A stretch of 64,000 bases of DNA from an uncultured virus (IMG/VR IMGVR_UViG_3300029288_000087) (IMGVR_UViG_3300029288_000087); one strand, 5' to 3'; positions 9,401 through 34,451 are shown, numbered from the stretch's first letter. The notes: generated by a model from the letters alone, not told the origin. Translations and numbers: made by a program.

Positions 9401-10334
9401 TGTCCCGGAGCGATTCGAGGTTGGGACCGGCGGCGGCGCGGAAGATGGACTTGCGGAGAGGGTGGGTGAGCATCACCTCGCGCGCCGCGCGCTTGCGCTC
9501 CTCGCGGGCTCCACGCAGAGCGATTCGGGCGGGTTCCTTCCACACGTTGACGCGAAGCGGTGCTTCTCCGTGCGGCCCTGCGTCCCCCTTGAGCATCTCG
9601 CTCCAGATGGCGCTCAGGCCCGACAGGTACGTCGCGATCGAGCCCATCTTGATCGAGGCTCGCTTCTCGGGCACCACGTAGCGGTAGACCATCGGGTCGC
9701 GCTCCTTGCGCGTCCAGATGCGTCCCTGCTCCTTGCGCACTTCGATGCTCCTCGGGAGTCGGTACATCCATCGGTAGTCCCGGATGAGCATGCCCAGGCG
9801 CTTGTGCAACTGGGACAGGTCGTCGGTCCCGTCAGGCTTCTTGGGAACGAACTTGGCGCGCGTGGCGGGCGTGAGCATCTCGTAGATTTCGAGGATGTTC
9901 ACCTGTCTGCCTCCGCGGGATGCCTTCTCGACGGCGCTGTAGATCATCCACGAGTCCATGCCGCTGGCCCGCACGATCATGCCTCGGATGTCGGGCGGAT
10001 CGGTGCTGCGCATCCACTCGTACAGCTCCATCGCGACCCGGCGCGTGACCTCGTCCGGGTCCAGCTCCCTGCCGAACTTCGCCCTCATCCAGTAGGTGAA
10101 AATCTCCAGCGACTTGAGGTACACGCGGATCGTGTTGGAAGCGTCCTGGGGCTTGTTGCGGAGCCTGCGCTTGCCTCGGAGATCCTCGCGCCGCACGCCC
10201 TTCGCGCTGTCCTTGAGACGAGAGACGAGCCGCTGGATCGCGTCCACGTACTTGGACTGCTGATCGACTTGGGAGTCCTCGAAGTACCCGAGTGCGTCGG
10301 GGCGGTTCGGGCGCGTGAGATCGAAGTCAGACAC
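6429..10334 (-). CDS. Very large tyrosine recombinase/integrase (1301 aa) with long C-terminal extension
   Basis: Intact catalytic set: CLRSEEL (R), GKGDKTR (K), HNFRH (HxxR), LLGHESIKTTEGY (H, Y); N-terminal core-binding-like NTIRVYLKSL and SIATYLSGLSAIW. Confidence 0.9.
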   Translation of the reverse strand: MSDFDLTRPNRPDALGYFEDSQVDQQSKYVDAIQRLVSRLKDSAKGVRREDLRGKRRLRNKPQDASNTIRVYLKSLEIFTYWMRAKFGRELDPDEVTRRVAMELYEWMRSTDPPDIRGMIVRASGMDSWMIYSAVEKASRGGRQVNILEIYEMLTPATRAKFVPKKPDGTDDLSQLHKRLGMLIRDYRWMYRLPRSIEVRKEQGRIWTRKERDPMVYRYVVPEKRASIKMGSIATYLSGLSAIWSEMLKGDAGPHGEAPLRVNVWKEPARIALRGAREERKRAAREVMLTHPLRKSIFRAAAGPNLESLRDTLALYLLTHACLRSEELVGALRKDLYEKNGLLTLSIRSGKGDKTREIPLSSEIRDAMVAFDQGLRQRAQENEVNPETGELQPSHWARYCAALMTNPNAPIVPSLVRWGTNERDGQPEQTALEPLDTSGLRRMLYALAERARVVEVKSGMQRGLNADERKRIHAHNFRHYGATCAREAGMPLDEIQALLGHESIKTTEGYVHIQPDSVVIIGAYIAKAEKGDVMSTEEAQRMHRRRGSPLDDERIIASEPEGRKVPTPFVGQQPGEEQRPRRERIAVSDKPLKSPEWAYQTGVDKLRLYLPEVHMDPHDVPKGQGAVLTYRIGHTSRLPWWAGRKNTWAEQDMAPILSHFQTQPETEPNWDVLKGLQNLYKRFWNEKGPTAALALVAWITEITTVASKQFQSIMVKRGDKWIDFKASASPGELGIVREHMAERIVEWFAVHGDMAVQPLIRRPYNWIPFTERATRIDTRSFRVDDTEKNRVIFQPGREIKFMGVAKKKGEGVGRPDWRHATVGMYSGGMVAIRQEHRAKIDEGFLQAIEWADATTWGQMKETSYPALAAMRDLPKWFFDRDPLLSLPEEERAQMRKWIEQLQGIRPSVMRTTVAIDDLVNWLQVWGDYYHEFKFDTSARDTAKKQMAELDKKFQEETGKQDRFGAGVKIPPISIYEIVGKAADASFARIQQDIDAKMQEGMEQDEAIAEAREEHPTLEEPTEMMEEIDKEGRPRHAPLKYDERLTMYLKSKHGIDISAPGAVKPSRVLRARMFEEGYLTFNEQNTIVHDMRTKEEFWRRHGTDSECVLRRIARNLWERHKEAMGKRGPDAQEHHDMIRRHYYAWLAYIVPCPAAIEEELRRLHPADMAAHSAERMRDVIAEAWGQTVTQMLKDRGELAEEKVGDVEVARRLQMAVGKKAERYAEVETEFEESQEAHGGIPAGRSYEEQTSRAWQSKEEAKQETAKFKQPIVRRRAKPNFSETFTDELPDPVMLVFAEQWVT

Positions 10335-16275: not shown

Positions 16276-16658
16276 CGTTTTTCCTTCCTCCGCTCGCTCG
16301 GCTTGATGAACACGATCTTGATCTCACAGACGCGCTTGCCCCACCTCCCTATCTTCTCCACGCGGGCCATCACGTCGTAGCAGCCGTCGCCGAACCCGGA
16401 GGAGACGCAGACTCCCAGGCCCTCGTGCCCCATGTCGTACGAGAAGGACTTCATGGCCGGGCCACCGTGCATCCGCTCGAAGAGCCCGAGCTTGTTGCAG
16501 AAGTCTTCCCAGTCCTTGCCGATCGATTTCGGCTTGTCCTCGCCCTGGCGGTGCAACACGTAGCAGGGGTCGCCGATCCACACGAGCCCCGCATCCACAC
16601 CGATCTCCCCGACCTTCACCCAGCTCGACTTTGTCCGTACCTTCTTCGTCGTCTTCAT
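16272..16658 (-). CDS. Hypothetical protein (DUF4241-like GVDAG/SGFGDG motifs)
   Basis: IGVDAGLVWIGDPCY and SSGFGDGCYDV. Confidence 0.55.
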   Translation of the reverse strand: MKTTKKVRTKSSWVKVGEIGVDAGLVWIGDPCYVLHRQGEDKPKSIGKDWEDFCNKLGLFERMHGGPAMKSFSYDMGHEGLGVCVSSGFGDGCYDVMARVEKIGRWGKRVCEIKIVFIKPSERRKEKR

Positions 16659-17698
16659 GTGTCTTCCTTCCCCAGCACGTGCTCTCGCACGTTGATCGGC
16701 GCATCTTCTGCCCCGCGCCAGTATGGCTCGATCTGGATTGCCTTGCGCAGCGCCCGGTTCACCCCATGCGGCTGCATCTTCCAGTGTCCGCGCACCAGCA
16801 CCTGTACCTGCGGGATGCCAGCCTTGCGCTTGCCCTCCATGTATTGCCGGATGGCGGGTCGGCAGTCGATCTTGATCGGCTTGCCGACTTGGTACGTCGC
16901 GATTGTGGGAGGACCGTCCCGCAGCTTCGCAGACCTGTGCCCCGCGTCGATCTTGTTCTGCTTGGGAGGCCTGATGTTGGACGGGTCGCTCATGGCGAGG
17001 CACGTTCCGCACACGAGCCTGCCCAACAGCGCCGCCGCCCGTTCGTCCACCTCCTCGAACGGGTGCACGAAGCTGCACTCGTCCCAGTGCGCGCTGTTTT
17101 CCTTCACGTCCAGCAGACACGTCACGTCGGGTCCGTACCTCCAGATGAGCACTGAGGAGTCGGAGAACGCCACCATGGCCCAGCCGTACGTCCGCTTGTC
17201 GCGCCAGCGAAGTGATGTGACGAGCACGTGGCGGATGTCGCTCAGCCGCCCGGTCGTGTCGTTCTTGATCTGGATGAGCCCCTCCGGGACAACGATGTCG
17301 AACGCGGGCCACGGCATCAGGATGTGCTCGCGCATCTCGTCGGTGACGCACGTTGCCATGAGCGCGGCGGCGTACTTGTGCCCCATGGTGACCTGTGGGA
17401 AGCCGCCTTGTGCCCAGCGGTGCGAGCCAATGAGGATGAGTTGGTCCCCTGGCTTTGCCGCCATGGTCGCGATGGCGAGCCCCTGCGCAGGATCGAAGTC
17501 CAGCTGGTGTTCGCTCAAGGCGTCCAGCAAGTCCTCGTCGGAGTTCATCGGCCCCACCGTGGAGAACACGACTTTGCCGATGCCAGCCACCATCTCGCGG
17601 CTCATGCCTGTGTGGGGATCGACTCCCCAGACTCGCTGCGCAGCGTCCGCGGACTCGGCGAGCGCCTTCATCTGCGCCCAGTCTTCCGGCTGCATCAC
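16655..17698 (-). CDS. Conserved phage hypothetical protein
   Basis: C-terminal VRGHWKMQPHG...IEPYWRG motif seen in phage proteins. Confidence 0.65.
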   Translation of the reverse strand: MMQPEDWAQMKALAESADAAQRVWGVDPHTGMSREMVAGIGKVVFSTVGPMNSDEDLLDALSEHQLDFDPAQGLAIATMAAKPGDQLILIGSHRWAQGGFPQVTMGHKYAAALMATCVTDEMREHILMPWPAFDIVVPEGLIQIKNDTTGRLSDIRHVLVTSLRWRDKRTYGWAMVAFSDSSVLIWRYGPDVTCLLDVKENSAHWDECSFVHPFEEVDERAAALLGRLVCGTCLAMSDPSNIRPPKQNKIDAGHRSAKLRDGPPTIATYQVGKPIKIDCRPAIRQYMEGKRKAGIPQVQVLVRGHWKMQPHGVNRALRKAIQIEPYWRGAEDAPINVREHVLGKEDT

Positions 17699-21419: not shown

Positions 21420-24400
21420 TTACGCCGCCTTTTTCTGCTCGGGGACGATCTCCCAGTATTGGAATCCGCCGCACTTGGTGCAGCAGCACGTCACGTCCTG
21501 CTTCTCGGTCCCCATCACGACAAGCTCGCCGCCGCACTTGCAGGCTGCCAGCACGCCCCCTGAGCGAGCCCGCGAGGCCCGTTCGACGGTGTTCTCCGAC
21601 GTGGCCTTGCCCTTGCCCCACACGGGCTTGTCCTTGGCATCATCCCACCGACCGATCCGTCTGTACTTCATCTGCTTGCTCCTTCCGCTGTCTGACCATA
21701 ACCACCACGCTGGCGGTGTCAACGACTTTTACGCGATCGTATACTCCCCAACAAGTACGGCACGATACCGCTCTCGCATGAAAGCAGCTCTTCGGCGCGC
21801 TCCGTCAGCCCGGCCTTGTCCCGCACGTCCACCCAACAGCGCTCGGTGTAGTTCCAGGGCGACCACACGCCGATGACCGCGCCGCCGCAGGCGTTCGCCT
21901 CCAACCTGAAGGTCACGCCGTCCGTGGTCCCCTCGTGCGCCAACGACTCGGCCAGCTCAACGTTGAGGTCGATGTCCGTGTCGTCCACGGGCTCGCCCGT
22001 CTTCGATGCGAGCCGAATGACGGTGCCCCACTTGTAGTCGTCGCAGGACATGTCCTCCGGGGCGTCCACCGTCAGCCCCTTGTCCCGCAGCCCCGTCGCG
22101 AGCCGTTCCAGGAACGCCAGTATCTTGGGGCCGTAGCTCTTGGCGATCCGCTCGGTCGCCTTGGAGTACTTCTCCTCAGTCATGGGGCGTGTCATTCGCC
22201 CAGCCTCCACACCTCGTGTGCACCAGCCATCAGCAGAGCCCGGTGGACGCAGGCATAGGACCAGTCTGCCAGTGCTGACGCGCTCCACACGGGGCACCGC
22301 TGACAAACGACGTTGGTGTCACGAAGGTGGCGGTAGATGTCCCCGATCGCCATCCCTGGTGCCACAGAAAGCAGCGACCGGACGGCTTTCGTCAGCGCTA
22401 CCCGTTCCTCCTCGGGCAGCCCCTTCGGCCAGCCGTGTCCGTCGCGCTCCACGTCCGTCAGGTACTTTTCCACATAGGTGAGATTCATCGGCTTGCTCCT
22501 GCCATACGTGTATGGCGACTCAATCCTCCCAGATCAGGGTGCCGCCCCGCGGGAGCTTCTGTGGCAACTGCTCGACGGGCAGACCAAACGCCTCCGCAAT
22601 CTTGGGCAACCAGGACTTCCACTTCTCATGGCCGATCCTTCCCTCGCCAGCGTCACCATAGCGGCTCAGGTGGTCCTGCTCGCGGGAGTCTTTCGAGCCC
22701 AGCATCCAACATGGCCCGTAGTAGGACTGGCACCCGACACCACTCCAGCCGACATGCCCGCGCGTCTTGCAGACACAAACCTTGCCCCTGCGCAGCACCA
22801 CGTCCCGCTCGGTTCCGTAGTCGGTCCCCAGCGAATGCCTCGAAAGCGTTTCCCTACTGGCTCGCTTCACCCACGGCATGGCTACTCGGCCTCCACCAGC
22901 TTGTAGAGCTTCTCTCCGACCTTCACGCGCACCTCGAACGAATCGGGGAACCTACGCGCAAGCTCCAGCGCACCCTCGGCAGTCTCGAACGTGCAGGTGG
23001 GCTTGTTGTCATACCGCTCCTGAAGCAGCGGCACCCTGGCACGAAGCGCTGTACTGTCCGGGCTCAGGGTATCCAGCAGGAGCACCGTCTTCTCCCTCAT
23101 GTCCAGCCACAGCGTCCCGTCCTCGCAGCGTGGAGGGATCCCTCCGCTATCATCTCCGATGGCGAAGCGCCCGCTCGGCACGTGCAGCCACAGCTTGTGG
23201 CCTCGCGCACAGAGCCTTCCCATGTACCGCCACGACACGTGCCTCTCCGGTCCAACCGCGGTTGTCGTTGCCATCACACCATCTCCTCGAATCCGCTCGC
23301 TGACATCTCGTCCGCAAGCTCGCCCTCGAACGTCTTGCCGCAGGTGCACGTCACCGTGTAGCTGGCGTGGACTCCGTAGTACGTCGTGCGGTAGCGCATC
23401 GGAGTCGTCGGCTTCAGCCCCCGCGAGTCCTCGGTGGACTCGTACTCGCCTTCGATGGACAGCTCGTGCTCGCCCTCCGGAGCATCCTTGTGCTCCTCCA
23501 TGTGCTCACGCACGGCGTCATCCTGGCCCTCCAGCTCGAACTCTGCCGACTTGAGTCCCTGACTGCACTCGCCGCAGCGCTTCTCCAGCGTCACCTGGAT
23601 GTTGATGTTGCCCTCGTCGTCCACTTCGCAGGACTGCTCTTCGGGCTCTTCGTCACCCTCGTACGATACGAACTTGTTGCAATCAGGACACCGCATCGCT
23701 TGCTCCCTTCAACGAACCTGACATAACCATCGCACCGGGCGGCGCAAGGGCTAGTCGTCGGAATCATCCTGGCCGGGCTTCCAGGTGCCGCTTGCGCCGG
23801 TCGCGTGCACCATCTCCAGGAAGCGCTGTGCTGCCTCGGGAGAGATACGCAGCCAGCCGCCATCCCTGTAGCTGTCCGCGTACGCCTCGAACCCACGATC
23901 GCGCAGCCCGTCACGCAGCCCGTCTACGCGCCGCTTGAGTGCCTCGTACTCGGCTTGCTCCTTGGCGTCCTCTGCCCGCTCCTCTTGCGGGTAGAACCGG
24001 ACCTCGCCCCTGCGCCCCAGAGCAACCTCCCCAGCCGCAGCGAGTCGCTTGATCGAGCCGCGCACCTGGGCAAGGCTCAGGGCTGTAGAGTGTGTCAGCC
24101 ACCGGGCGCTAGTGCGCCCCAGCCTGCCGCCTTGGGGGCACTTCGCCTTGTCCTCTTCGTACTCCTTGACCAGCGAGCGCAGCACAGCTGCGTCCACTTG
24201 CTTCAACCACTCTTTGGTCTTCGCCATAGCTTGCTCCTTCGACCAGCCTGACATAACCATCGCACCGGGCGGCGCAAGGGGCTACGTCGTCAAACCCAAA
24301 CGCTTCGCCGCGTCGTCGAGCGACTCGATCGTGAGGTTGCTGGGCAGCGCCGAATAGATGTTCCACCCGTTGCGGTTGCCCCGGACCGTGATGATCGCGA

Positions 24401-24866: not shown

Positions 24867-24913
24867 CTTACCCTCCTGTGTCGCGGGGATGACATTGCTC
24901 CTGCTCCCAGTGT

Positions 24914-25330
24914 TCACAGCAGCGCGGGGATAGTTCCTGCCTTCGCTGCTGCGAGAACCGTGTCGATCACTTGCTGCGCCCATCCGCCCGGGTAGCCGCG
25001 CATGACTTTGATGACGGGCTCGCTGTGGATGAAACGCCAGCCGTCCCAATCGGGCGACCAGAACTTGTCCCATCCGACCTTGACGTTGAAAGCATGGACC
25101 GGCGACCACCCCTCACGGGCGGCGTTGAGAATCGCGGTGCCCAGGTTCAGGTAGAACCCGAATGAGCCACCGTAGTCGCCGCACTGGAGCGTGACGCGCC
25201 AGCATGCGATCGGCACCTCCGCCTCGGGCGGGTAGTTTTTCAGCAGCGTGTCAAAATCCTGCCTTGTGAGGCGCGGCAGCTTCGGCACCTCGTCCAGCCT
25301 CTTGAACTTCTTACTGTCCACTCGAATCAT
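24914..25330 (-). CDS. Array gene 16, hypothetical (MIRVDSKK...)
   Basis: Start directly after the leader motif. Confidence 0.75.
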   Translation of the reverse strand: MIRVDSKKFKRLDEVPKLPRLTRQDFDTLLKNYPPEAEVPIACWRVTLQCGDYGGSFGFYLNLGTAILNAAREGWSPVHAFNVKVGWDKFWSPDWDGWRFIHSEPVIKVMRGYPGGWAQQVIDTVLAAAKAGTIPALL

Positions 25331-25392
25331 TGACTTGCTCCTGCTTGTGGCGGGATGATTCCCGCAACGGTGCCGCCGGGTGGCGGCTGTGC

Positions 25393-25701
25393 TCAGCGGA
25401 AGAACTTCGCCTTCGGGTACATCGCCAGCACCTGATTTCTGGCGTCCTCCCGACTCTTGGCTCGCAGCGTACCGTCGATCGTGCAGTCGTCGTTGGCAAA
25501 CCAGTAGATCGGCGTGCCAAACCCGAAGTACGTGCCGTTTTCGTCGTAGGCACCGTCTGCACTCATGCGCACCTTGCGCAGCGTGATCTTGCCCGAGAAG
25601 GTAGGAGGCCCCTCCCATGTTCCGCGGCCCATTGCTGCGCCGCGTTTGGGGTCTCCGCACCATCCCTTGGGGTCGTGCGTCTTGTAGCTCGGTCTCGACA
25701 T
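25393..25701 (-). CDS. Array gene 15, hypothetical (MSRPSYKT...)
   Basis: Start directly after the leader motif. Confidence 0.75.
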   Translation of the reverse strand: MSRPSYKTHDPKGWCGDPKRGAAMGRGTWEGPPTFSGKITLRKVRMSADGAYDENGTYFGFGTPIYWFANDDCTIDGTLRAKSREDARNQVLAMYPKAKFFR

Positions 25702-25767
25702 GACTTGCTCCTGCGTTGTGGGGCATCGTAGCCCCGTTGGTGCCGCAGGCGAACCTGCGGCTTCGGT

Positions 25768-26169
25768 TCAGATGTCCCTGGCGGGAAGGTCTGCGATCAC
25801 GTAGTCGGCCATGCGGTCGTCACCGATGACGCCCGCTACGCGACGGATCGCTCGGATTGTTGCCTCCTCATCGGGCTTGCCATGCGTAGCCCCGTTCGCA
25901 GGCGGGATGAGGTATCCAGCCTGCGAACCGCGCCAGCCAGCGGGGACGCCCCTCGGTCCGCTCTCCAGCATGCCGTAGACGAGCCTGCGCCCGTCTCCGG
26001 GCTGCCGCACCTTGATCCACCAAACGCGATTGGCTTGGCACTCGTGCTCACCATTGTAGTCGTGAGCGCTCGCGATCACAGGCCAATCCTTGGCGACGAT
26101 ACGCACAGGGTTTTCGTCCGAAAGCGCGACGACGATCTTCTTTTCCGTGGTGGTGGTCTTTTCTGACAT
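25768..26169 (-). CDS. Array gene 14, hypothetical
   Basis: Start directly after a leader motif variant (AGCAGGAGTACGTC). Confidence 0.75.
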   Translation of the reverse strand: MSEKTTTTEKKIVVALSDENPVRIVAKDWPVIASAHDYNGEHECQANRVWWIKVRQPGDGRRLVYGMLESGPRGVPAGWRGSQAGYLIPPANGATHGKPDEEATIRAIRRVAGVIGDDRMADYVIADLPARDI

Positions 26170-26234
26170 GACGTACTCCTGCTTTAGCGTGGCTTGATTG
26201 CCACGGTAGTGCCTGGGCCATCCCAGGCTGCTAG

Positions 26235-26441
26235 CTACTCCACCTCGGTGTAGACGGTGCGTTTTGTCGCCAGCACCATCGGCTCACCGCAGCACGTGAA
26301 CACGTGGTCCTTGGGAGCGTCCCAGTAGTCCCCTGCGTTCGCGCTGTTTTCCGCACCGCACACATTACAGAGAAGGAAGGGGTGCGGGCCGGGCACACCG
26401 ATCTGGTTCTTCAGATCCGCGACTGTGACTTTGTTGCTCAT
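26235..26441 (-). CDS. Array gene 13, small Zn-ribbon-like protein
   Basis: CNVC...CCG; leader motif. Confidence 0.75.
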   Translation of the reverse strand: MSNKVTVADLKNQIGVPGPHPFLLCNVCGAENSANAGDYWDAPKDHVFTCCGEPMVLATKRTVYTEVE

Positions 26442-26516
26442 TGACTTGCTCCTGCTACTCGCGGCGACATTGCCGCAATGGTGCTACCCGGCCACGACGG
26501 GGCTGGTAGCGGTAGG

Positions 26517-26927
26517 TCAGCGGTGGAACTCCTCGAAGGGGCAGCGTCCGCTGGGAACGGGAGTGTAGCCTGTGCTCACGGCATCGTCCCAGGTGAGCCC
26601 GCAGGTGCCGCACGTCATGGGATCCTTGGCTTCGTCCCCGGGCTTGACCGGCTGCACCGGGAAGTCTGGAGGGACCACCACGGTGTGTGTGGCGGGCACT
26701 GGCTCTTCGTCCATCTCATCCACGACGGAGATGTCTCGCCCGTCGTTGTCGGTCGGGTAGCTCGGGTAGCAGCGCCCGTTGAGCGTCTTGCCCCACGTAG
26801 TGGGAACGTCGAAGCCCTCTTCGTTCTCGTCCATGAGATCGTTGGCGAGCTTCATCGCCTGCTCTTCTGTCTCGGCTGCCACGTCGAAACAGAGCCATGC
26901 CTTGGCTTGGCATCGGTATGTTTTCAC
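26517..26927 (-). CDS. Array gene 12, acidic hypothetical protein with C-terminal CxxC
   Basis: GTG start after the leader motif. Confidence 0.75.
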   Translation of the reverse strand: MKTYRCQAKAWLCFDVAAETEEQAMKLANDLMDENEEGFDVPTTWGKTLNGRCYPSYPTDNDGRDISVVDEMDEEPVPATHTVVVPPDFPVQPVKPGDEAKDPMTCGTCGLTWDDAVSTGYTPVPSGRCPFEEFHR

Positions 26928-26987
26928 GTTGTTGCTCCTGCTTTGTGCGGGTCTCCCCGCGTTGGTGCCGCCGTGTGGCGGCTCGAC

Positions 26988-27215
26988 TCATGCCCCTTGC
27001 ACTCGCTTGGCGAAGTCCTTGAGCGCTTCCTCGTACTTGCTGAAGTAGTGCCCCCACACGTACTCGCTGTGCTCCATTTCGTGGGTGAGCACTTCGACGT
27101 GCGTGACGTACGGCTCGATGCCGTTGCCGATCTTGCGCAGCACGACGCGCGAAGGAAGTTGCTGCCCCTTGATACCGGGACTTATGGGGCCTTCGGCCAG
27201 ATGCCTTTGTTCCAT
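26988..27215 (-). CDS. Array gene 11, hypothetical
   Basis: Leader motif; WGHYF motif. Confidence 0.75.
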   Translation of the reverse strand: MEQRHLAEGPISPGIKGQQLPSRVVLRKIGNGIEPYVTHVEVLTHEMEHSEYVWGHYFSKYEEALKDFAKRVQGA

Positions 27216-27277
27216 GACGATTGCTCCTGCTTGGTGCGGGTCTCCCCGCGTTGGTGCCGCCGTGTGGCGGCTGGCAG

Positions 27278-28141
27278 CTACGCTGCCGCGCTGTTGAGGT
27301 GCCCGGGTAGCATCCCCGCAGCGAAGCCCAGGCGGCGGTAGATGTACGCCGTGAGGAGCTTGGTGAGCCGCTCGCGTCCGTACTTCGCCCAGTACCCATC
27401 CGCTGCCACGCCCTGTTCCCAGAGCGCGTGCAGCACGCTGTGAACCGGCCTCGGCATGTGCCCAGGCCCGCCAGCTTCGTTGATCGCGTTCATCAGCATG
27501 CTGGGCACGTAGTAGGGTTCCTCCATGTGGCCCAGGATGTGGCTCTTGGGGTCACCGTCGAGCACGGGCTTGCCGCTCTTGTCCTTCATGAGGCAGGCCC
27601 AGCAGTCCGCACCCGAAGGCTTGGGAACCTTCAGAGCGAACAGCGCGTCCATGTAGTCGGAGACGAACTTGCGAGCCCGCTTCTTGAGCTTGATGTCGCT
27701 CCGGGTCTTCTTGTCAGTCGCCAGCGGCGCACCCTTGACCTTGCCGGATTCCGTGACGGTCATGCCGTCCGTGAACACGTAGGCCTTGCCAGGAGACGCC
27801 CAGGGGTATTCCCCCGGCTTGTACATCTTGACGTACCAGATCCCGGCATCCGTGTAGATGGCGAGCCCTGCGGGCATCAGCGCGTTCAGACGACCCTTTG
27901 TCGTGGCCGTCTTGAAGCCGCATGACGAGATGATCATGCCGCCCGACTTGCGGAACACGGCGATCTTGCTGCCGAACAAGTGCAACTCGATGTTGCCCGC
28001 GTTCAGGCAGACCGACGTGTTCTCGCTCAGCTTGCGAGTCGTGACCGGCTTGCCGCGACTCATCAGCAGTGTCCCGCCGATGACGCGGAAGAAGGTCTCG
28101 CCTCGCTTGTACTTCCTTCCTCCGAAATTCAACTTGTCCAT
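27278..28141 (-). CDS. Array gene 10, hypothetical (MDKLNFGG...)
   Basis: Leader motif; GFKTATTKGRLNAL motif seen in phage proteins. Confidence 0.75.
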   Translation of the reverse strand: MDKLNFGGRKYKRGETFFRVIGGTLLMSRGKPVTTRKLSENTSVCLNAGNIELHLFGSKIAVFRKSGGMIISSCGFKTATTKGRLNALMPAGLAIYTDAGIWYVKMYKPGEYPWASPGKAYVFTDGMTVTESGKVKGAPLATDKKTRSDIKLKKRARKFVSDYMDALFALKVPKPSGADCWACLMKDKSGKPVLDGDPKSHILGHMEEPYYVPSMLMNAINEAGGPGHMPRPVHSVLHALWEQGVAADGYWAKYGRERLTKLLTAYIYRRLGFAAGMLPGHLNSAAA

Positions 28142-28221
28142 GACTTTGCTCCTGCTTGGTGAGGGGACATCCCCTCGTTGGTGCCAGCCTAACCATGAAC
28201 GGTCAGGTGGCAAGAGGCGGG

Positions 28222-28887
28222 TCAGTCGCGAGCCCAGCAACCGGGCAGCGTGACCGTTTCGGGCAGGGACTTCAGGAAGGCGATCACGTCCTCCGGGACT
28301 TCCTCGTACAGCCATTGGCTGCCGTACTTGTATCCACACTCCGGGCACGGCTTGTTCAGCAAGCCCTTGGGATGCTCTTCTGGGCGCACCCATCCCGTGG
28401 CCTTGGTTTCCCTCTTGTGTACCCGGTAAAAGGAAACGTCCAAAGGATGAAGCGTGCTCAAGGGCAGTGACAGAAGGAACCGCTGTCGCTCTGTCACGGC
28501 GGTCGAGCCGTTCTTGACCAGCTCCGCGACGCCGGATTCCACCAGATTGTTCCGCGCAGTGTAATGCTCAGTCTTGAGCATGTACTCGATCACTTCTACC
28601 TTTTCGGTCACATCCCAATCCTTGCGCTGGTGCTCGCAACCGGCTCGCATGTCGTTCAGGTGCCAGCGGTTCCACACCTCTGCCAGCTTGGCGACATCAA
28701 TCCCCGGGAACGGCTGGGTGACGTTGACCAGATCGATCTGACCGCAGCCACCCTTCGCATCACCATTACTCAGCGGTCCTTCAACGCCGGTCAGAGAGAG
28801 GCGCTTTCCGTCCCACTTGATGGTCACGAAGACCTTGCCGCAGTCACCTGTGCCCACCAGCACATGCTTTGTGAATGGTTCGATCAT
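28222..28887 (-). CDS. Array gene 9, hypothetical (MIEPFTKH...)
   Basis: Leader motif; WNRWHLNDMRAGC and CPECGYKYGSQW motifs. Confidence 0.75.
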   Translation of the reverse strand: MIEPFTKHVLVGTGDCGKVFVTIKWDGKRLSLTGVEGPLSNGDAKGGCGQIDLVNVTQPFPGIDVAKLAEVWNRWHLNDMRAGCEHQRKDWDVTEKVEVIEYMLKTEHYTARNNLVESGVAELVKNGSTAVTERQRFLLSLPLSTLHPLDVSFYRVHKRETKATGWVRPEEHPKGLLNKPCPECGYKYGSQWLYEEVPEDVIAFLKSLPETVTLPGCWARD

Positions 28888-28957
28888 TGACTTGCTCCTG
28901 CTTGTGGCGGGATGATTCCCGCAACGGTGAGCACGCCGGGGAGGCGCGCTCGTAAGG

Positions 28958-29467
28958 TCAAACGGCTGCGCGCTCGCTGCGAAGCTCATTGACCAGCGCT
29001 CGACGGTGAAGATCGGCTTTGTAGTACCGATCACAGTTGTACGTGTTCAGCATGGCTTCGCGGATCCGGTACCACGCTTGCTCTTCGCTGGCCTCGGAGC
29101 GACCCTGCCACGTCCGCTCGACTTCAGGAATCGGCGTGACGTAGGCGTTGACGATCGCCCAGTTGTCTTCTGGCCTGCCGTTGAACGAGATCGCGGGCGC
29201 GAGGCCGAATCCGCAGCCGGGTGCGCCGAGCGATCCCATGGTCTCACACGTGTCAGCGTCCAGGCCGCACTGCTCGACGAACTTGTCGAACTGCTTGCGG
29301 GTGAGGATGGCGCAATACTTGCGATGCTTCCCGTGAGGGAATACCTCGCTGTAGTCCGCGCTCTCATCGCCCTCTGTGCATTGCCACTGCCGAATGCACG
29401 GTGGCCTGTACTCCGAGACGCTAGCTCCGCGCGCTATGTCAAACGAGTAGATGACTGAGAACTTCAT
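28958..29467 (-). CDS. Array gene 8, hypothetical
   Basis: Leader motif. Confidence 0.75.
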   Translation of the reverse strand: MKFSVIYSFDIARGASVSEYRPPCIRQWQCTEGDESADYSEVFPHGKHRKYCAILTRKQFDKFVEQCGLDADTCETMGSLGAPGCGFGLAPAISFNGRPEDNWAIVNAYVTPIPEVERTWQGRSEASEEQAWYRIREAMLNTYNCDRYYKADLHRRALVNELRSERAAV

Positions 29468-29538
29468 TGTGACTTGCTCCTGCTTGTGCGTGGCACCATG
29501 CCACGTTGGCGCGTGCGCTTGCGGCGCACGCTTGGATG

Positions 29539-29961
29539 CTACGGAAGCAGCATCGCGCAGATGTACAGGTAGCCGTAGCTCGCGTTCGGAGTCGCCACGA
29601 GGCGAACGCCGTTCTCTTCGATCTCAATCAGATCGCGACTGTCAGGGCTCACGTACTTGCTCGCCACGCGCTTGTGCAGCTTGTCCAGCAGCCCGGAGTC
29701 CCCGTTGAGCCTCTTCTGAAGATCCGGCCACCGGGACTGGTCGCCATCGGCCCCTTGCCGATTCGGCACGAGGTCCACGGACTGAACCAGCTTCTTGTCC
29801 TCGATGATGCGCGTGCGCCCGCCGACACGTTTGCGAATGCGCTGCGTTTGGTAGCTCGACTGAAGGATCGCTCGCGCGCCCCAGGCGACTGCGCAGTCAC
29901 GGTCAACGAGCCAGCCGCACCATGCGGGCTTGGGCCTGCTTGCGTTCTTCTCTTCTTCCAT
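29539..29961 (-). CDS. Array gene 7, hypothetical (MEEEKNAS...)
   Basis: Leader motif; C-terminal ATPNASYGYLYI. Confidence 0.75.
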   Translation of the reverse strand: MEEEKNASRPKPAWCGWLVDRDCAVAWGARAILQSSYQTQRIRKRVGGRTRIIEDKKLVQSVDLVPNRQGADGDQSRWPDLQKRLNGDSGLLDKLHKRVASKYVSPDSRDLIEIEENGVRLVATPNASYGYLYICAMLLP

Positions 29962-30038
29962 TGACTTTGCTCCTGCTTGTGGTGCGGGCACCATACCCGC
30001 CCTAGTGCCTCGCCGCTTCCTCACGGCGAGGCAGGCTT

Positions 30039-30416
30039 CTACTTGCTCCCTTCTCCCTGGCCGACATGTGCCCGCAAGCGCAGGAGCGTCCACCCTGCGG
30101 ACTTGCGGCCTGAGTATCGGCGACCATCGATCATGGTCGCAAAGCACTGCACCACGACGGGGCAGTACGCGCCCGGAGGGTGAATGCGGTAGCGCCCAGT
30201 CAGAGCCAGCGGCGCAATGATCTTGTCGCCAGCCCAGTTCTTGAGCACAAACCGCCCGCCCTCCTCGCAGACGTGGCCGATGACCACGCCTTGGGTATGA
30301 TCCACAACCGGGCCGATAGAGGAGAACTGCGTCCCGTTGTGTTCAACGAAACCGATCTCCACCTGCGCTCCGGTCGCGGTCACACCGCTTTCGGAATGAA
30401 AGGTTGTCTTGTCCAT
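30039..30416 (-). CDS. Array gene 6, hypothetical (MDKTTFHS...)
   Basis: Leader motif. Confidence 0.75.
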   Translation of the reverse strand: MDKTTFHSESGVTATGAQVEIGFVEHNGTQFSSIGPVVDHTQGVVIGHVCEEGGRFVLKNWAGDKIIAPLALTGRYRIHPPGAYCPVVVQCFATMIDGRRYSGRKSAGWTLLRLRAHVGQGEGSK

Positions 30417-30491
30417 TCGACTTGCTCCTGCTTGTGCGTGGCACCATGCCACGTTAGCGCCATCGTAGCGAGCTGGCTAGATGGCGGGCGG

Positions 30492-30626
30492 TCAAATCTC
30501 CGTGTATGCCACAGACACTTGACGCCCCGGGTATTTTGCCTGGGCCTTCCTCTCCGCGTCGTTGTGCGACTTGGCTCTGATCATTCCCACCTCTTCCCCG
30601 TCCACGTATACGATATATACCTTCAT
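30492..30626 (-). CDS. Array gene 5, 44-aa protein absent from the ORF track (MKVYIVYVDGEEVGMIRAKSHNDAERKAQAKYPGRQVSVAYTEI)
   Basis: Translated by hand; exactly fills the space between two leader units. Confidence 0.75.
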   Translation of the reverse strand: MKVYIVYVDGEEVGMIRAKSHNDAERKAQAKYPGRQVSVAYTEI

Positions 30627-30722
30627 TCGACTTTTGCTCCTGCTATGGTGCGGGACCATGCCCGCCCTGGTGCATGCGCGCGCGAACGCGCATGCGAGGG
30701 ATTGTGCTGCTGTGGTGGGATA

Positions 30723-31883
30723 CTAGGCGGCGAGCGCTTGGGAGAAAATCTTGCCCGCGAACCGTTCCAGGTCGAGCACGTCGTCGCCGATCTGCGCCGA
30801 GCGTGCCTTGCGGGGCGCACCAGCGAGTGCCTTCGCCTCGATGTCCTGGCTGAGAGCCGACACGGCCTGCGCCGCATCGAGCCAGGAGATGCCCTTGCCG
30901 AGCGTGTGAGGCACGCGCGGGTCGGCGCTCTGCACCATTTCGACGACGCGCTTCGCCATGTCCTGGGAGACCTGACCCTTGAGGATCGTGTTCAAGCGGT
31001 CCACGGTCAGTTCCTTCTCACCCGCCGCGTTCAGCGAGTCGAACATCGACTGCCGCCGCTCGGGCAGAAGGAACTGCGATGTGCTGTCCTTGATCATGCT
31101 GATGGTGGCCTCGTGGTCGAGCTTGCGCGTGTCTTGCGACCAGTCCACGTCACGGTCGAGCCGCTGCCCGAGATGCACGCGGCGGAAGATCCGCTCAGTC
31201 GTCATCCCGTTCATGCAGGCCAACCGCAGGAAGAACGCCGTGATGCCCGCTGCCGTGCCGCCCCAGTCCGAATTGCGATACTCGATTCCCAGGACGTAGG
31301 GGTCGCCGCCGACCATCTGCACCTGCGGAATGACCATCTTGATCGCGAACTGGAGATCCGTGCCGGTCGCTGAGAACGGGACCGCGCCCGACTTGTCAGA
31401 GACTTCCAGCACGGTTTCGAGCAAGGGGCGGGTGTCGATCGTGTTGTAGCTGGCGGAGAGAACCGCCATGCCCAGTTCCACGTCGGGCTTCTTGCGCGCG
31501 CGCACGAGGTGAGCCGGGGGCCTGCCGTCCTTGCCGACAAGGTGCGCCCAGTCCGTGTTCAGCACGTTCTGCAAGAGGTCGCGCGCCCAGTCCGTGTCAG
31601 CGTCCAGGCAGGCGTTCGCGAAGTTCGCGTTCACTACCTGACCGATGCCGTACACGTGGCTGAGAGCGTGGTCGTGCAGCACGAGCGTATCGTGCTTGTC
31701 GAGCACCATCTGGACGTTGTTGTCCTGCGTGACCGCGAACTCCACAAGCTCCGCGGGCGCTTTGCGGTCCACCGGCATCTCGCTGAACACGCGCGCGACT
31801 TGCGCCTTCGCGTTCGGGAGGTTCCGATGGATCACTTCGTCCAGGCGTGCCGCCGCCTGTTCTGCCGAAACATTCTGCATCAT
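30723..31883 (-). CDS. Array gene 4, DUF932-like protein
   Basis: VLSASYNTID, RNSDWGGTA, FLRLACMNGM, RRVHLG motifs. Confidence 0.75.
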   Translation of the reverse strand: MMQNVSAEQAAARLDEVIHRNLPNAKAQVARVFSEMPVDRKAPAELVEFAVTQDNNVQMVLDKHDTLVLHDHALSHVYGIGQVVNANFANACLDADTDWARDLLQNVLNTDWAHLVGKDGRPPAHLVRARKKPDVELGMAVLSASYNTIDTRPLLETVLEVSDKSGAVPFSATGTDLQFAIKMVIPQVQMVGGDPYVLGIEYRNSDWGGTAAGITAFFLRLACMNGMTTERIFRRVHLGQRLDRDVDWSQDTRKLDHEATISMIKDSTSQFLLPERRQSMFDSLNAAGEKELTVDRLNTILKGQVSQDMAKRVVEMVQSADPRVPHTLGKGISWLDAAQAVSALSQDIEAKALAGAPRKARSAQIGDDVLDLERFAGKIFSQALAA

Positions 31884-31985
31884 TTGACTTGCTCCTGCTT
31901 TAGTCGGGCCGCGACATGCGACCCGCTTGGTGCCATCCTAACCATTGCTGGCCGGGTGGCAAGGGAGGGCGTGACAGGCAATGTC

Positions 31986-32369
31986 CTAGTCCACGATCTC
32001 AGTGAGCGAGCACTGGAAAATCTCGTGGATGTAGTCCTTGATCTCGCGGCGGTCGCGTCCGGTGATGCGCAGGACGATTCCGTGCACGAGCGAAGCCTTG
32101 ACGATCACGGTGTGCTCGGTCCAGCCATCGTACATGCCAACATCGTTCATGTGGTGGTAGCTGGTATGGATCACCAGCTTCTCGCCAGTGGACGCATCGA
32201 AGTCGAACGTGCATCCGTTGTCGAACCCGGAGCCGTGCGGCAACCTGTTCAGAACGAGCTGCTCAATCGTCTCGCGGTGCTTGACTCGCCATTCCGCATT
32301 GCCCTTCTCGGCACAACGCGCGTAGGCGTCAACGGATGACGCCAGCCTCTTGTAAACTGGCTCTTTCAT
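31986..32369 (-). CDS. Array gene 3, hypothetical (MKEPVYKR...)
   Basis: Leader motif; LPHGSGFD and YHHMNDVGMYDGWTEH motifs. Confidence 0.75.
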   Translation of the reverse strand: MKEPVYKRLASSVDAYARCAEKGNAEWRVKHRETIEQLVLNRLPHGSGFDNGCTFDFDASTGEKLVIHTSYHHMNDVGMYDGWTEHTVIVKASLVHGIVLRITGRDRREIKDYIHEIFQCSLTEIVD

Positions 32370-32444
32370 TGACTTGTGCTCCTGCTTTGTGCGGCGGGAT
32401 TGCCGCATCAGTGCGCGTACCCGTGCGGGCGTACGCGCGTGGGG

Positions 32445-32741
32445 TCAACCGACCCGCTTGGACGCGCCAGCGGTTTCCATCTCCGCCACCAGTGCGCGCA
32501 CCGCAGCGTCGCCACCCTTGTCGCTGTAGACGTGGTGCGGACGCCCGATGCGCCCCTCGAAGTCCCACCCTTCGTAGCCGTCGCGGCGCGCGAAATCGAT
32601 CCGCGTTCCGTCTGCGCGTTCCAGGTAGAACTCTCCGAAGCCCATGTGATGCAGGGTTCCGAAGCGGTTGCAAGCGTTCAGGAAGTCGGAATCCCCGACA
32701 ACCTTCTCGCTTCCATCAATCTGCTTGATCGTGTGAGGCAT
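32445..32741 (-). CDS. Array gene 2, hypothetical (MPHTIKQI...)
   Basis: Leader motif. Confidence 0.75.
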   Translation of the reverse strand: MPHTIKQIDGSEKVVGDSDFLNACNRFGTLHHMGFGEFYLERADGTRIDFARRDGYEGWDFEGRIGRPHHVYSDKGGDAAVRALVAEMETAGASKRVG

Positions 32742-32812
32742 TGACTTGTGCTCCTGCTTTGAGAGGCGGCACCATACCGCCTTCAGTGCGTACGCGGGCG
32801 CGTACGCGAGGC

Positions 32813-33160
32813 TCAGTCCTCTGCGGTCTCTGGACGGGAGAACGGAAGCTGGTGACAGCCGCAACCGTGCGGGCAGCACCATGCTTCCTTGAAGTCGTTT
32901 GTGCAGTTTCGGAGGCGTTCCGCTAGCTCGTAGATTTTGTTCGCCAGGGTTTCGTTGCACAAGCAATCGGCCCCGCAGAGCGCACGCTGGTAGCGGCGTT
33001 CGTCAAAATCAGTCCGAGCGTTCCACCTCGGATGGAAGTAGCCACCGGAGCTTGCTTTCCATTCCGCGTACACCACAAGCAACCACTCGCGCGGCTGATC
33101 GTGAATGTTCTCGTACAGGTCAGCGTATGCCTCCGGTGCGTGAGACCATTCGCATGTCAT
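32813..33160 (-). CDS. Array gene 1, hypothetical (MTCEWSHA...)
   Basis: Leader motif. Confidence 0.75.
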   Translation of the reverse strand: MTCEWSHAPEAYADLYENIHDQPREWLLVVYAEWKASSGGYFHPRWNARTDFDERRYQRALCGADCLCNETLANKIYELAERLRNCTNDFKEAWCCPHGCGCHQLPFSRPETAED

Positions 33161-33197
33161 GGTTTGCTCCTGCGCTGTGCTGACGGAATTGTCAGCG

Positions 33198-33328
33198 GTC
33201 GGTACCCGGGAATCGAACCCGGATCTCGCGGCACCAGTTACGGTGTCGCGTGACAGCTTGCTCCTAGGCGCGTCAAACGCACCATGCCCGGCGGTCAGAT
33301 GCCCCGTCAGGCCTTTTGGCTATACCGA
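33198..33328 (-). ncRNA. tRNA-like RNA with expanded anticodon region (not a canonical tRNA)
   Basis: Acceptor TCGGTAT/GTACCGA, mini D-arm GCC-AAAA-GGC, stem TGACGG/CTGTCA enclosing ~50 nt, long variable arm, T-arm CCGGG-TTCGATT-CCCGG; no encoded CCA. Confidence 0.7.
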
Positions 33329-33329
33329 T

Positions 33330-34260
33330 TTTGAGGTTGCTGGCGACAGGTTGACTATTGTCGCCAGAGAGCCCCTGCCCACGTCTTAGCGTGAGCGGCA
33401 GGAGCAGGAGCGGGATCTACTTCCCCCACCACGCTGGTATGCCCAGTCACGGGCGCGTGATGGTTTCGGAACCTGCCTGGAAGCCGTACGGTCAAAAGCC
33501 CCGGGCTATCATGCGGCAGGCTCGCGCAGCTTGGAGCAGCGCGACGATCCAAAATGTCATCCCCGTTGAATTCGATTCACGTTGCCGGTTCACCTCAGTA
33601 GCAGCGGTCCGATTTGGCATGCGTCCCCATGGACAGCCGCGGACTTGCTTGCCCCCCGTCAAAGACAAGGGGCTGAGTTTACCCGGTACGCGGGATAGTA
33701 GCTCTAGCCGGAACGGAATCTCTCCCGTGGCCCGCGGGTATCAGCCGCAGCGCCCTGCGCGTAGGACGGCTCAGGCGATCTGAGGGACGGAGCCCAGAGG
33801 CGCAGTCACGCCGCACGGTACGCCGTGCGGTTAGGCGAGCACCGCTTGTCCGTTCGCTTGTCGGTTCCGCTTGCTAGTCTTGCTTCAGGCGTTCACGGAT
33901 CCAGGAGTCCACGCGAGACCTTGAGCCTTACCGAGCCGCCAAAAGCGACCCCTATACGCGCCGGTCCGAACGGAAACCTGCCCGGTTCCCTGGTGAGGGG
34001 AGGACTTGCGCGCCCCAAATGCTGGCGCAGCAGCGGTCACATGGGCCGGGTAGACCCGTGGCAGCCATCCGCTCGACTAGCGCGCGTTGCCGCGTCGCAA
34101 TCGGGGCAGATGTTGCCCTATTGCTTGCAGGGTACGCCCCGCAAGGCTGGCGTGGTCCGGTCAAGGGCACCGGCTAGGCTCACCCCACAACAGGCAGGCT
34201 CGCCAGGGGAGCCGCCCCGCCAACCGGGGCCGCGCTCCACCCTGTTGTTGTCCTGCACCC
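33330..34260. ncRNA. Putative large structured non-coding RNA region
   Basis: No convincing ORF over ~0.9 kb in an otherwise packed genome; many inverted repeats; contains the split match to the array leader motif; strand unresolved. Confidence 0.55.
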
Positions 34261-34279
34261 CACCCCCTCCCCTCCTATA

Positions 34280-34350
34280 CGTGGCGATAGTGTTTCGCTA
34301 TCAGCGCGTACAGGGGGTACATCGTGGCGATAGTGCACTGGTATAGTGTA
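34280..34350 (-). promoter_or_regulatory. Repeated CGTGGCGATAGTG boxes (34280-34292, 34323-34335; partial ATAGTG near 34343): candidate promoters/operators of the ncRNA-array unit
   Basis: Exact 13-bp direct repeat in an AT-richer patch; minus strand reads CACTATCGCCACG. Confidence 0.5.
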
Positions 34351-34451
34351 TCGTATTGCAGCGTCACGCGGTGTATTGTGAGGTGGTGTGATGTATCGCT
34401 GGAGCTTGCTGTCCAGCTTGGGAACGGAGCGCGCAGGGAGCGCGTGCGACG

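Follow-up and report, generated by a model that had tools for sequence, protein, structure and literature searches.

What do spacers of one and the same design do between sixteen small genes, and why are the halves of these spacers combined differently from one spacer to the next? The question is raised by an array of co-directional open reading frames (ORFs) on the minus strand of a 64,000-nucleotide stretch of DNA (hereafter the window) from an uncultured virus (IMG/VR IMGVR_UViG_3300029288_000087), which corresponds to positions 62001-126000 of C3, a contig of 134,037 bp in a short-read metagenome assembly of 205 contigs and 3.57 Mb. A first-pass annotation of this DNA had proposed that the leader halves of the spacers were swapped by recombination at a four-base junction, RCYR (R, purine; Y, pyrimidine), and that each gene moved, with an integron-like logic, together with the hairpin before it and the hairpin behind it. 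In this analysis, we have found that every spacer is built of two hairpins, a short linker and a ribosome-binding leader, and that the hairpins and the genes are combined independently.

Read on the minus strand, each spacer consists of the stop codon of the upstream ORF, a gap, a first hairpin (hairpin A), an unpaired linker, a second hairpin (hairpin B), a stretch rich in A and C, the Shine-Dalgarno (SD) motif GCAGGAG and the start codon of the next ORF. The spacers are 60-102 nt long; the gap between stop codon and hairpin A measures 4-9 nt, except in two units where it is 24 and 27 nt, the linker 2-6 nt, and GCAGGAG lies 7-12 nt before the start codon. The two-hairpin fold is present in 16/16 units of the window. 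The window has 16 copies of the leader motif, where 2.78 would be expected; this number was attained by 0/100 shuffles, and the exact 13-nt form of the motif has seven copies in the whole assembly, all of them inside the array. The same design is found in a second array. The 386-aa protein encoded in the array (ORF386) has six homologues among 5.8 billion proteins, one of which has 76% identity and is encoded on ENA contigs of up to 33 kb, and a scan of metagenome contigs with the alignment of ORF386 homologues returned 8 loci. One of these, a 9,888-bp metagenome contig from another data set (L240), encodes an ORF386 homologue of 74% identity and carries the same design in 7/7 spacers, with seven very homogeneous copies of hairpin B. 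The occurrence of this architecture in an independent contig indicates that the design is no assembly artefact. GCAGGAG is kept in 23/23 units (16 of the window and 7 of L240). No two-hairpin spacers were found at the remoter ORF386 relatives L241 and L289 (45% identity) and L290 (29%).

Hairpin A is 16-31 nt long, GC-rich and variable in both sequence and loop, and it is closed by a G...C pair in 16/23 units of the two arrays. For hairpin B, 95.5% of the 110 stem cells in the 23-unit alignment form pairs, compared with 76.9% in shuffles, none of which (0/500) equalled the observed value. Three of the five pairs in its 5-bp core are near-invariant G-C pairs (21/23 rows each). The other two covary, one as CG 10, GC 6, UA 3, AU 1 and GU 1, the other as CG 13, GC 5 and UG 2, with double changes in 17 cells, and in 11/23 and 5/23 rows at the two variable stem positions. 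The loops, as judged by eye, mostly have the form N-A-T-N-N-N, with AT at loop positions 2-3. A covariance model of linker, hairpin B and leader (model R1), which was trained on the 23 units, scores these units at 29.5-68.3 bits, the next best match in 243.5 kb (all of C3 included) reaching 20.7 bits. No Rfam family was found at gathering score in the 64 kb, and none at E<=1 in the region 24.5-34.8 kb.

Since hairpin B is constrained in sequence, with its three near-invariant pairs, a biased loop and a single orientation in every spacer, it might instead be a double-stranded DNA operator, i.e. 5-bp inverted repeats about 6 bp apart, recognised by a repressor of the element, with hairpin A being incidental; the homogeneity of the seven copies in L240 would also fit this explanation. 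The analogues would be the stoperators of cluster A mycobacteriophages; stoperators are mentioned in excerpts of PMC3203893. We consider such an operator distinctly unlikely, because the concerted changes at the two variable stem positions, like the high proportion of pairing cells, are predicted by base pairing but not by two independent half-sites, and because hairpin A pairs likewise without any conservation of sequence.

Within this common design, the spacers are mosaics. Four pairs of units pointed out in the first-pass annotation behave as it described (unit numbers as in Table 1). Units 1 and 8 are identical over 47 nt (25326-25372 and 28883-28929). The tract begins 2 nt beyond the start codon, takes in the SD motif and hairpin B, and ends at the linker (minus-strand CACC), whereas the hairpins A of the two units are unrelated (similarity 0.09). 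Similarly, units 9 and 11 share hairpin B and SD motif in a 37-nt repeat (29471-29507 and 30419-30455) and differ in hairpin A (similarity -0.24), and units 7 and 13 are alike in hairpin A (0.55) but unlike in hairpin B (-0.15). Units 5 and 6 are near-identical, with a 39-nt repeat (26945-26983 and 27234-27272) that covers both hairpins. In addition, units 14 and 15 share hairpin A, as judged by eye, and an exact leader repeat of 23 nt (32367/32739); units 10 and 12 are alike in hairpin B (0.77) and not in hairpin A; and the core of hairpin B in unit 14 is that of L240 unit 8065. Unrelated sequence adjoins each of the four exact repeats (47, 39, 37 and 23 nt). Unit 1 is a chimera, whose hairpin A is 1 nt off that of units 5 and 6, from which its hairpin B differs, and whose hairpin B and leader are those of unit 8, the two tracts overlapping only by CACC. 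When all units except the head unit, in which a tRNA-like arm takes the position of hairpin A, were compared, the similarity in A was not correlated with that in B (Mantel r=0.04, p=0.28; 22 units, 5000 permutations); hairpin B is also common to just 1/4 A-similar pairs, and hairpin A to just 1/9 B-similar pairs. Hairpins A and B are thus independent of each other. The reassortment of the two halves, as proposed earlier, is thereby supported, but a dedicated RCYR junction is not. Breaks do fall in the 2-6-nt linker, but others lie at the stop codon, where hairpin A starts, and at the start codon. Their clustering in the linker is no proof of a site-specific mechanism, since selection for intact hairpins alone would confine the surviving breakpoints to this place.

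As the repeats could mislead an assembler, the mosaic might be thought to result from mis-joins at the repeated leaders. In the probable source run, the Logan unitigs (k=31) do break at every repeated leader, and the gene order across the repeats therefore depends on the original assembler. On the other hand, the depth is uniform (17.7-25.9), and in the graph X-R1-a-R2-b-R2-c-R1-d-R3-e-R3-Z, where each segment is used once, only a single path is permitted by our reasoning. Furthermore, mis-joins cannot make the units themselves, which recur in L240 from another data set, so that an artefact of this kind is extremely improbable. No joints between units are listed in the source-run contigs, which are blind to rare circles or deletions. 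One source-run contig (depth 7.46) joins 25374-25394 to 34015-34035, with 21 letters per side and both flanks unlike the window. It could come from a lower-abundance relative without the array, or be noise; this type of joint is unreliable and nothing is drawn from it.

Which parts of a unit travel together can be seen by comparing the window with L240. The two arrays differ in gene content, 5/7 L240 ORFs being without a counterpart in the window, and in this respect too the earlier reading is supported. The ORFs in common are ORF386 and, tentatively, a 125-aa ORF at 30039-30416; if the latter are indeed orthologous, the window would carry an extra 44-aa gene (30492-30626) between the common ORFs; the flanks of this apparent indel are not preserved. 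On the 5' side of ORF386, the upstream ORFs are unrelated (E=34), and the nucleotide homology sets in precisely at their stop codon. It covers the 24-nt spacer and hairpin A of unit 13, with one compensatory change of a C-G to a T-A pair, halts at the linker, is missing over hairpin B, which has been replaced, and returns at the leader of ORF386. On the 3' side, the homology goes beyond the stop codon found in the window, as far as the start of the next hairpin A, the 27-nt spacer in unit 12 being the homologue of C-terminal coding sequence in L240. At the second common ORF, neither hairpin is conserved. Hairpin B is accordingly kept with the ORF it precedes in 0/2 cases, hairpin A with the ORF it follows in 0/1, and hairpin A with the ORF it precedes in 1/2. 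In the window, moreover, identical tracts of hairpin B and leader sit before unrelated ORFs, which means that hairpin B is not tied to its ORF, and the class of hairpin A seen in unit 7, unit 13 and L240 unit 8585 is flanked by three different pairs of unrelated ORFs. Taken together, the linkage counts and these classes beside unrelated ORFs lead to the conclusion that hairpin A, hairpin B with its leader, and the ORFs are three separately exchangeable modules. The cassette proposed earlier, made up of hairpin B, SD motif, ORF and the hairpin A downstream, is contradicted by these counts, and what goes with ORF386 is the upstream hairpin A. The breaks between the window and L240 fall at unit boundaries, between ORFans of a plastic region.

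The proposed RCYR site fares no better as a crossover junction. It follows hairpin A in 16/16 units of the window when a 1-nt register shift is allowed, but in only 1/7 units of L240 (chance rate 0.071). The shorter RCY is found in 16/16 and 6/7 units, respectively (chance rate 0.135), RCC in 11/16 and 5/7 (chance rate 0.074), and RCCA in 9/23. The conserved feature is a C-rich unpaired linker with a leading purine, not a four-base site.

In an integron-like system, a structure-specific recombinase would cut the RCYR linker and move hairpin B, SD motif, ORF and hairpin A as circles. Canonical attC sites consist of the cores RYYYAAC and GTTRRRY around a long imperfect palindrome, 57-141 nt in all. 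The array is unidirectional and promoterless, its genes are ORFans whose stop codons are each followed by a structured element, its chimeras break within the linker, RCYR is present in all window units, and a large protein of 1301 aa with a tyrosine-recombinase domain is encoded at 6429-10334 (-). The idea of a stem-loop as a possible target of a recombination protein was also raised by the authors who described the PeSL (promoter-early stem-loop) elements of phages, in excerpts of PMC2839356. However, this protein, the only one in the window with such a domain, scores 38.7 bits on TIGR02249, whose cut-off is 265, and genome-wide 0/15 matches to the integron integrase exceed the cut-off, the best having 82.3 bits. 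Its gene lies about 15 kb off in the same direction, neither divergent from nor adjoining the array. Among the 23 units GTTRRRY occurs in one and RYYYAAC in none, and the hairpins are only 14-31 nt long. As the RCYR motif is rare in L240, and the linkages that such cassettes predict (B with its ORF, downstream A with its ORF, preserved flanks of the apparent 44-aa gene indel) were not found, and as identical tracts of hairpin B and leader stand before unrelated ORFs, we regard an integron-like system as highly unlikely, and the first-pass comparison is not sustained. The tyrosine-recombinase domain takes up only about residues 230-520 of the 1301-aa protein, and the other ~800 residues match no Pfam family.

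It then has to be asked at which level the units act. A scan with the consensus only gave one weak sigma-70-like match (9/12 positions) among the 16 units, the other 15/16 being without any; 0/10 terminator-like sites lie inside a unit, and no unit has a T-tract terminator. No sigma-70-like site was found in the ~1.2 kb upstream of the array (33233..34451) either. Two other readings, a sigma-54 spacing and an extracytoplasmic function (ECF)-type -35/-10 arrangement in the linker, were dropped after inspection by eye. For high-GC bacteria, it has been proposed that hairpins can act as terminators without a T tract, and C3 codes for a 166-aa protein with matches to sigma-70 region 2 and ECF-like sigma factors. 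Each unit might thus hold a non-sigma-70 promoter, read for instance by the ECF-like sigma factor of the element itself, while the hairpins attenuate read-through, which would make the units cassettes of the PeSL type; their position, the SD motif and start codon at their 3' end, the ORFan content and the differing gene content fit PeSL behaviour as given in excerpts of PMC2839356. We take this to be unlikely, in view of the solitary weak promoter match and the missing T tracts. Besides hairpin B and RCY, only the ribosome-binding leader is conserved across both arrays, which leaves no room for a -10 element plus a transcribed SD motif, and an AAC motif in the linker was seen by eye in only 6/16 units.

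The explanation that we favour, and to which we give a slightly better than even chance, is that the spacers serve both as standardised intercistronic RNA punctuation and as recombination linkers, in one long and apparently promoterless operon of 16 ORFan genes. A function in the transcript is favoured because hairpin A conserves pairing and not sequence, because the pairing in hairpin B is kept by double changes, and because the units are strictly co-oriented with the genes, end in an invariant ribosome-binding leader and are without promoters. The hairpins would fix or protect mRNA ends, or bind a factor, and the leader would even out translation, so that each unit would punctuate a polycistronic mRNA. 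Being repeated in direct orientation, the units would also act as recombination linkers. Likely routes are annealing by the element's own RecT/YqaJ-type proteins, or template switching during replication on very short homology. Switching induced by the hairpins could explain crossovers within 4-10 nt of homology, of which the chimeric unit 1, with a crossover within the 4-nt CACC, would be an example. The outcome would be that hairpin A, hairpin B with its leader, and the ORFs reassort independently, and selection for intact hairpins would leave visible only those crossovers that fall in the linker and at ORF boundaries. A bolder form of RNA punctuation, which we hold to be rather improbable, is that the spacers mimic tRNA acceptors and that the transcript is cut at each of them, either by an activity of the RNase P/Z type or by one of the element's own enzymes, the RNA processing units being at the same time the recombination modules. 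It is suggested by the resemblance of the G-C-closed hairpin A followed by RCC(A) to the top of a tRNA, and by a degenerate tRNA-like element that heads both arrays. If this is true, a bacterial mobile element would have its own counterpart of mitochondrial tRNA punctuation, tied to gene shuffling.

Several points weigh against punctuation by RNA and its coupling to recombination. What is said above of an RNA-level function, of the operon and of the recombination pathway is in each case what we infer from sequence. The hairpin energies, summed by hand over 15 units, are near-equal between the strands (hairpin A -224.7 sense and -218.2 antisense; hairpin B -162.4 and -154.6 kcal/mol), and no clear strand preference emerged from energies or G-U pairs; the G-U pairs therefore do not reveal the acting strand, and hairpins or cruciforms at the DNA level are possible. 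The gap between stop codon and hairpin A is tight in the window (5-9 nt in 13/15 spacers after an ORF) but loose in L240 (6-29 nt), which weakens a coupling to termination. The linker homology of 4-10 nt is below the usual need of RecT or RecA. Only one related array was found, hence the linkage counts are as small as they are, and the second common ORF is visible in L240 for 17 residues, 15 of which align at 60% identity (E=0.002). Finally, no capsid, portal or terminase gene was recognised on C3, where 7/51 proteins match PHROGs and 0 of them structural families.

Table 1. Features of the array and its flanks (window coordinates; A, hairpin A; B, hairpin B; R1, score of the covariance model; GC3, GC content at third codon positions)
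Feature	Position	Strand	Details
Array, 16 co-directional small ORFs (44-386 aa)	24914..33160	-	ORF calls; coding-type GC3 0.68-0.87
Array ORF starts	25330, 25701, 26169, 26441, 26927, 27215, 28141, 28887, 29467, 29961, 30416, 30626, 31883, 32369, 32741, 33160	-	
Unit 1	25331..25392	-	B 25347-25368, linker 25369-25371, A 25372-25387
Unit 2	25702..25767	-	B 25720-25735, linker 25736-25741, A 25742-25761; R1 54.0 bits
Unit 3	26170..26234	-	B 26188-26205, linker 26206-26210, A 26211-26228; R1 49.0 bits
Unit 4	26442..26516	-	B 26459-26478, linker 26479-26482, A 26483-26510; R1 61.0 bits
Unit 5	26928..26987	-	B 26947-26960, linker 26961-26966, A 26967-26982
Unit 6	27216..27277	-	B 27236-27249, linker 27250-27255, A 27256-27271
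Unit 7	28142..28221	-	B 28161-28176, linker 28177-28181, A 28182-28212
Unit 8	28888..28957	-	B 28904-28925, linker 28926-28928, A 28929-28951
Unit 9	29468..29538	-	B 29489-29505, linker 29506-29510, A 29511-29531
Unit 10	29962..30038	-	B 29981-30002, linker 30003-30005, A 30006-30033
Unit 11	30417..30491	-	B 30437-30453, linker 30454-30457, A 30458-30486
Unit 12	30627..30722	-	B 30647-30667, linker 30668-30671, A 30672-30695; 27-nt spacer before A
Unit 13	31884..31985	-	B 31902-31927, linker 31928-31930, A 31931-31961; 24-nt spacer before A
Unit 14	32370..32444	-	B 32388-32410, linker 32411-32412, A 32413-32438
Unit 15	32742..32812	-	B 32760-32785, linker 32786-32787, A 32788-32807
Unit 16, array head	33161..33232	-	B 33179-33196; T-arm-like hairpin 33200-33228 in A position; R1 29.5 bits
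Degenerate tRNA-like element, array head	33197..33266	-	ARAGORN at relaxed threshold only; counterpart L240 6137-6215 (+)
Upstream region of ~1.2 kb, no convincing ORF	33233..34451	-	includes block 34250-34344 conserved with L240

The products of the array give few clues to what is being punctuated. Two of the 16 ORFs match Pfam, one of them Kyano_Gp96 (E=6.1e-07) and the other under its cut-off, three match PHROGs, all three of unknown function, and one of the 15 scanned matches NCBIfam, far under the cut-off. No ORF of the array resembles another. The contig has 0 tRNA genes and no recognisable housekeeping genes. Apart from the putative sigma factor mentioned above, it codes for a YqaJ exonuclease, RecT, an AEP primase, an AAA_25 protein and helicases, for a ParB-HTH protein, a DUF2786/DUF7168 protein, a Dam methylase and an RRXRR protein, and for an IS607 transposase, a TnpB-like gene and sugar-modification genes. 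Relatives of ORF386 are located on IMG/VR viral contigs. As there is no recognisable structural gene, the label phage-like rests on the accessory genes and on these relatives, and it is with reserve that we call C3 a mobile, phage-like element. The TnpB-like gene (with a Cas12f1-like TNB domain) and the IS607-family serine transposase gene are close to the contig end (window 63324-63959 (-); C3 126.4-127.0 kb), and the GC content falls to 0.57 at 58-62 kb, amid the sugar-modification genes.

The tRNA-like element at the head of the array was missed by default ARAGORN and by Rfam, and the relaxed threshold at which it is called also yields many false calls. Its T-arm loop is nearly the same in both arrays (TTCGATT and TTCGACT), and the stems differ compensatorily. 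It matches no tRNA of the assembly, and its use as an attachment site is therefore unsupported. The sole conserved stretch of the 1.2 kb upstream is the block 34250-34344, which is 85% identical over 95 nt to L240 5152-5245; within it, two direct copies of an 11-nt motif, CTATCGCCACG, stand ahead of a run rich in G, and the block may be a promoter/operator, an origin, or part of a non-coding RNA. A gene of 347 aa downstream of the array (16655-17698 (-)) has its homologue upstream of the array in L240 (1014-1745 (+)), and the two elements have thus been rearranged around the array.

Vestigial leader-like sequences are scored by model R1 at 24888-24940 (-) with 14.4 bits, at 22486-22546 (-) with 20.7 bits, and at L240 6768-6815 (+) with 17.1 bits; in the last, leader and ATG directly adjoin the next hairpin A, as if only the ORF had been deleted. 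In a scan of 16 kb, the best sigma-70-like promoter was that at 21695-21722 (-) (TTGACA, 16 nt, TATGGT), which precedes a gene starting at 21671, whose leader GGAGCAAGC resembles that of the array, without hairpins.

Searches for further arrays covered several collections. With 8.6 kb as the megablast query, none of 50,697 phage records matched, and a DNA search of taxonomic relatives gave 0/60. In viral contigs, a leader 15-mer had at least 104 single matches, with no array in the loci scanned, and the pattern of linker and leader had at least 120 single matches, mostly in low-GC coding repeats, again with no array. The conserved upstream 28-mer had 0 matches in viral contigs, and a leader 22-mer 0 matches in metagenome contigs. 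ORF386 as a single query found nothing in viral contigs, nor did its alignment in genome contigs. The pattern of hairpin B and leader hit 32 loci of diverse taxa in genome contigs, all single and at most 26.7 bits on model R1, and one locus, also a single unit, in viral contigs. The latter is on an IMG/VR contig of 62% GC that is otherwise unrelated (L248, 9987-10036 (+)), where a lone unit resembling hairpin B and leader (R1 35.3 bits) precedes one gene. No credible protein homology between this contig and C3 was found, and the unit may be due to chance or be a common regulatory module.

Hairpins between the cistrons of one transcript are known in several forms, including the RNase III sites of the T7 early region, the stabilising repetitive extragenic palindromic (REP) elements, and the substrates of hairpin plus RCCA that are cleaved by RNase P. 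The present spacers share this position with them, and resemble the acceptor top of a tRNA in that hairpin A is closed by G...C, and followed by RCC, in 16/23 units each. A classical RNase III site, however, needs longer stems than these, and only a minority of the units have RCCA, as noted above. Should the hairpins signal processing or end protection, the array would be a compact natural design for the even expression of many unrelated genes from one promoter, and it would let one ask whether sites of RNA punctuation double as recombination hotspots. With integron arrays, the locus has in common its single direction, small and mostly promoterless ORFans, one folded element per ORF and a variable gene content; it differs in that there is no IntI and no R''/R' core motif, in its short hairpins, and in that the folded element behind an ORF does not move with that ORF (0/1).

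In cluster K mycobacteriophages, the start-associated sequence (SAS) is an asymmetric AGGAG motif a few nt before many non-structural genes, and about half of the SASs have an inverted repeat upstream with a variable spacer (extended SAS, ESAS), the function of which is described as unknown, with a role in translation proposed (Pope et al. 2011, excerpts of PMC3203893). Like the units described here, these are SD-bearing repeats in a single orientation, scarce elsewhere and placed ahead of different gene families, with an inverted repeat upstream. GCAGGAG, 7-12 nt before the start, is placed analogously to the AGGAG of SAS (3-7 bp), but the leader here is unlike the SAS consensus in sequence (PMC3203893, as excerpted). 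The ESAS repeat has 17 bp and is imperfect and conserved in sequence, whereas the stem of hairpin B has 5 bp. SASs are scattered over half a genome instead of occupying every spacer of one array, and neither a second hairpin after the stop codon nor mosaic halves are described in those excerpts.

The PeSLs of T4-type phages, in which the interval from stop codon to SD holds a stem-loop terminator together with a sigma-70-like promoter, border ORFan indels and yield mini-circles (Arbiol et al. 2010, excerpts of PMC2839356), and PeSL cassettes are also treated in Comeau et al. 2014 (PMC4122927, likewise in excerpt). The present units are more like these linker cassettes than like an integron. 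Both are conserved composite intergenic elements that reach from the upstream stop codon to the next SD and start codon and contain GC-rich stem-loops, both are concentrated among the ORFans of a plastic region, where they border differences in gene content between relatives, and in both chimeric elements are expected from exchange; a comparison with integrons was drawn by the PeSL authors as well (PMC2839356, in the same excerpts). A PeSL, however, has a strong sigma-70-like promoter, an AT-rich upstream region and a single terminating stem-loop, whereas here there is no convincing promoter match and no T tract, and two differently constrained hairpins with a C-rich linker stand in GC-rich sequence, in a host that is not a recognisable T4-type phage. 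The resemblance is thus one of logic and position, not of composition. No two-hairpin, promoterless spacer of this kind was found described in full-text literature listings, whose coverage leaves out most subscription journals. Of the routes to modular evolution in large phages, the best documented is by conserved linkers that both regulate accessory genes and shuffle them; so far, these linkers have been known as promoter-terminator cassettes in T4-type phages. On present evidence, the spacers of this array are not a new class, but a promoterless and bipartite variant of the known conserved intergenic linkers with gene shuffling, PeSL and SAS/ESAS, in which the same logic works without promoters in a GC-rich and otherwise unrecognisable element, and in which the two halves of the spacer evolve as separate modules.

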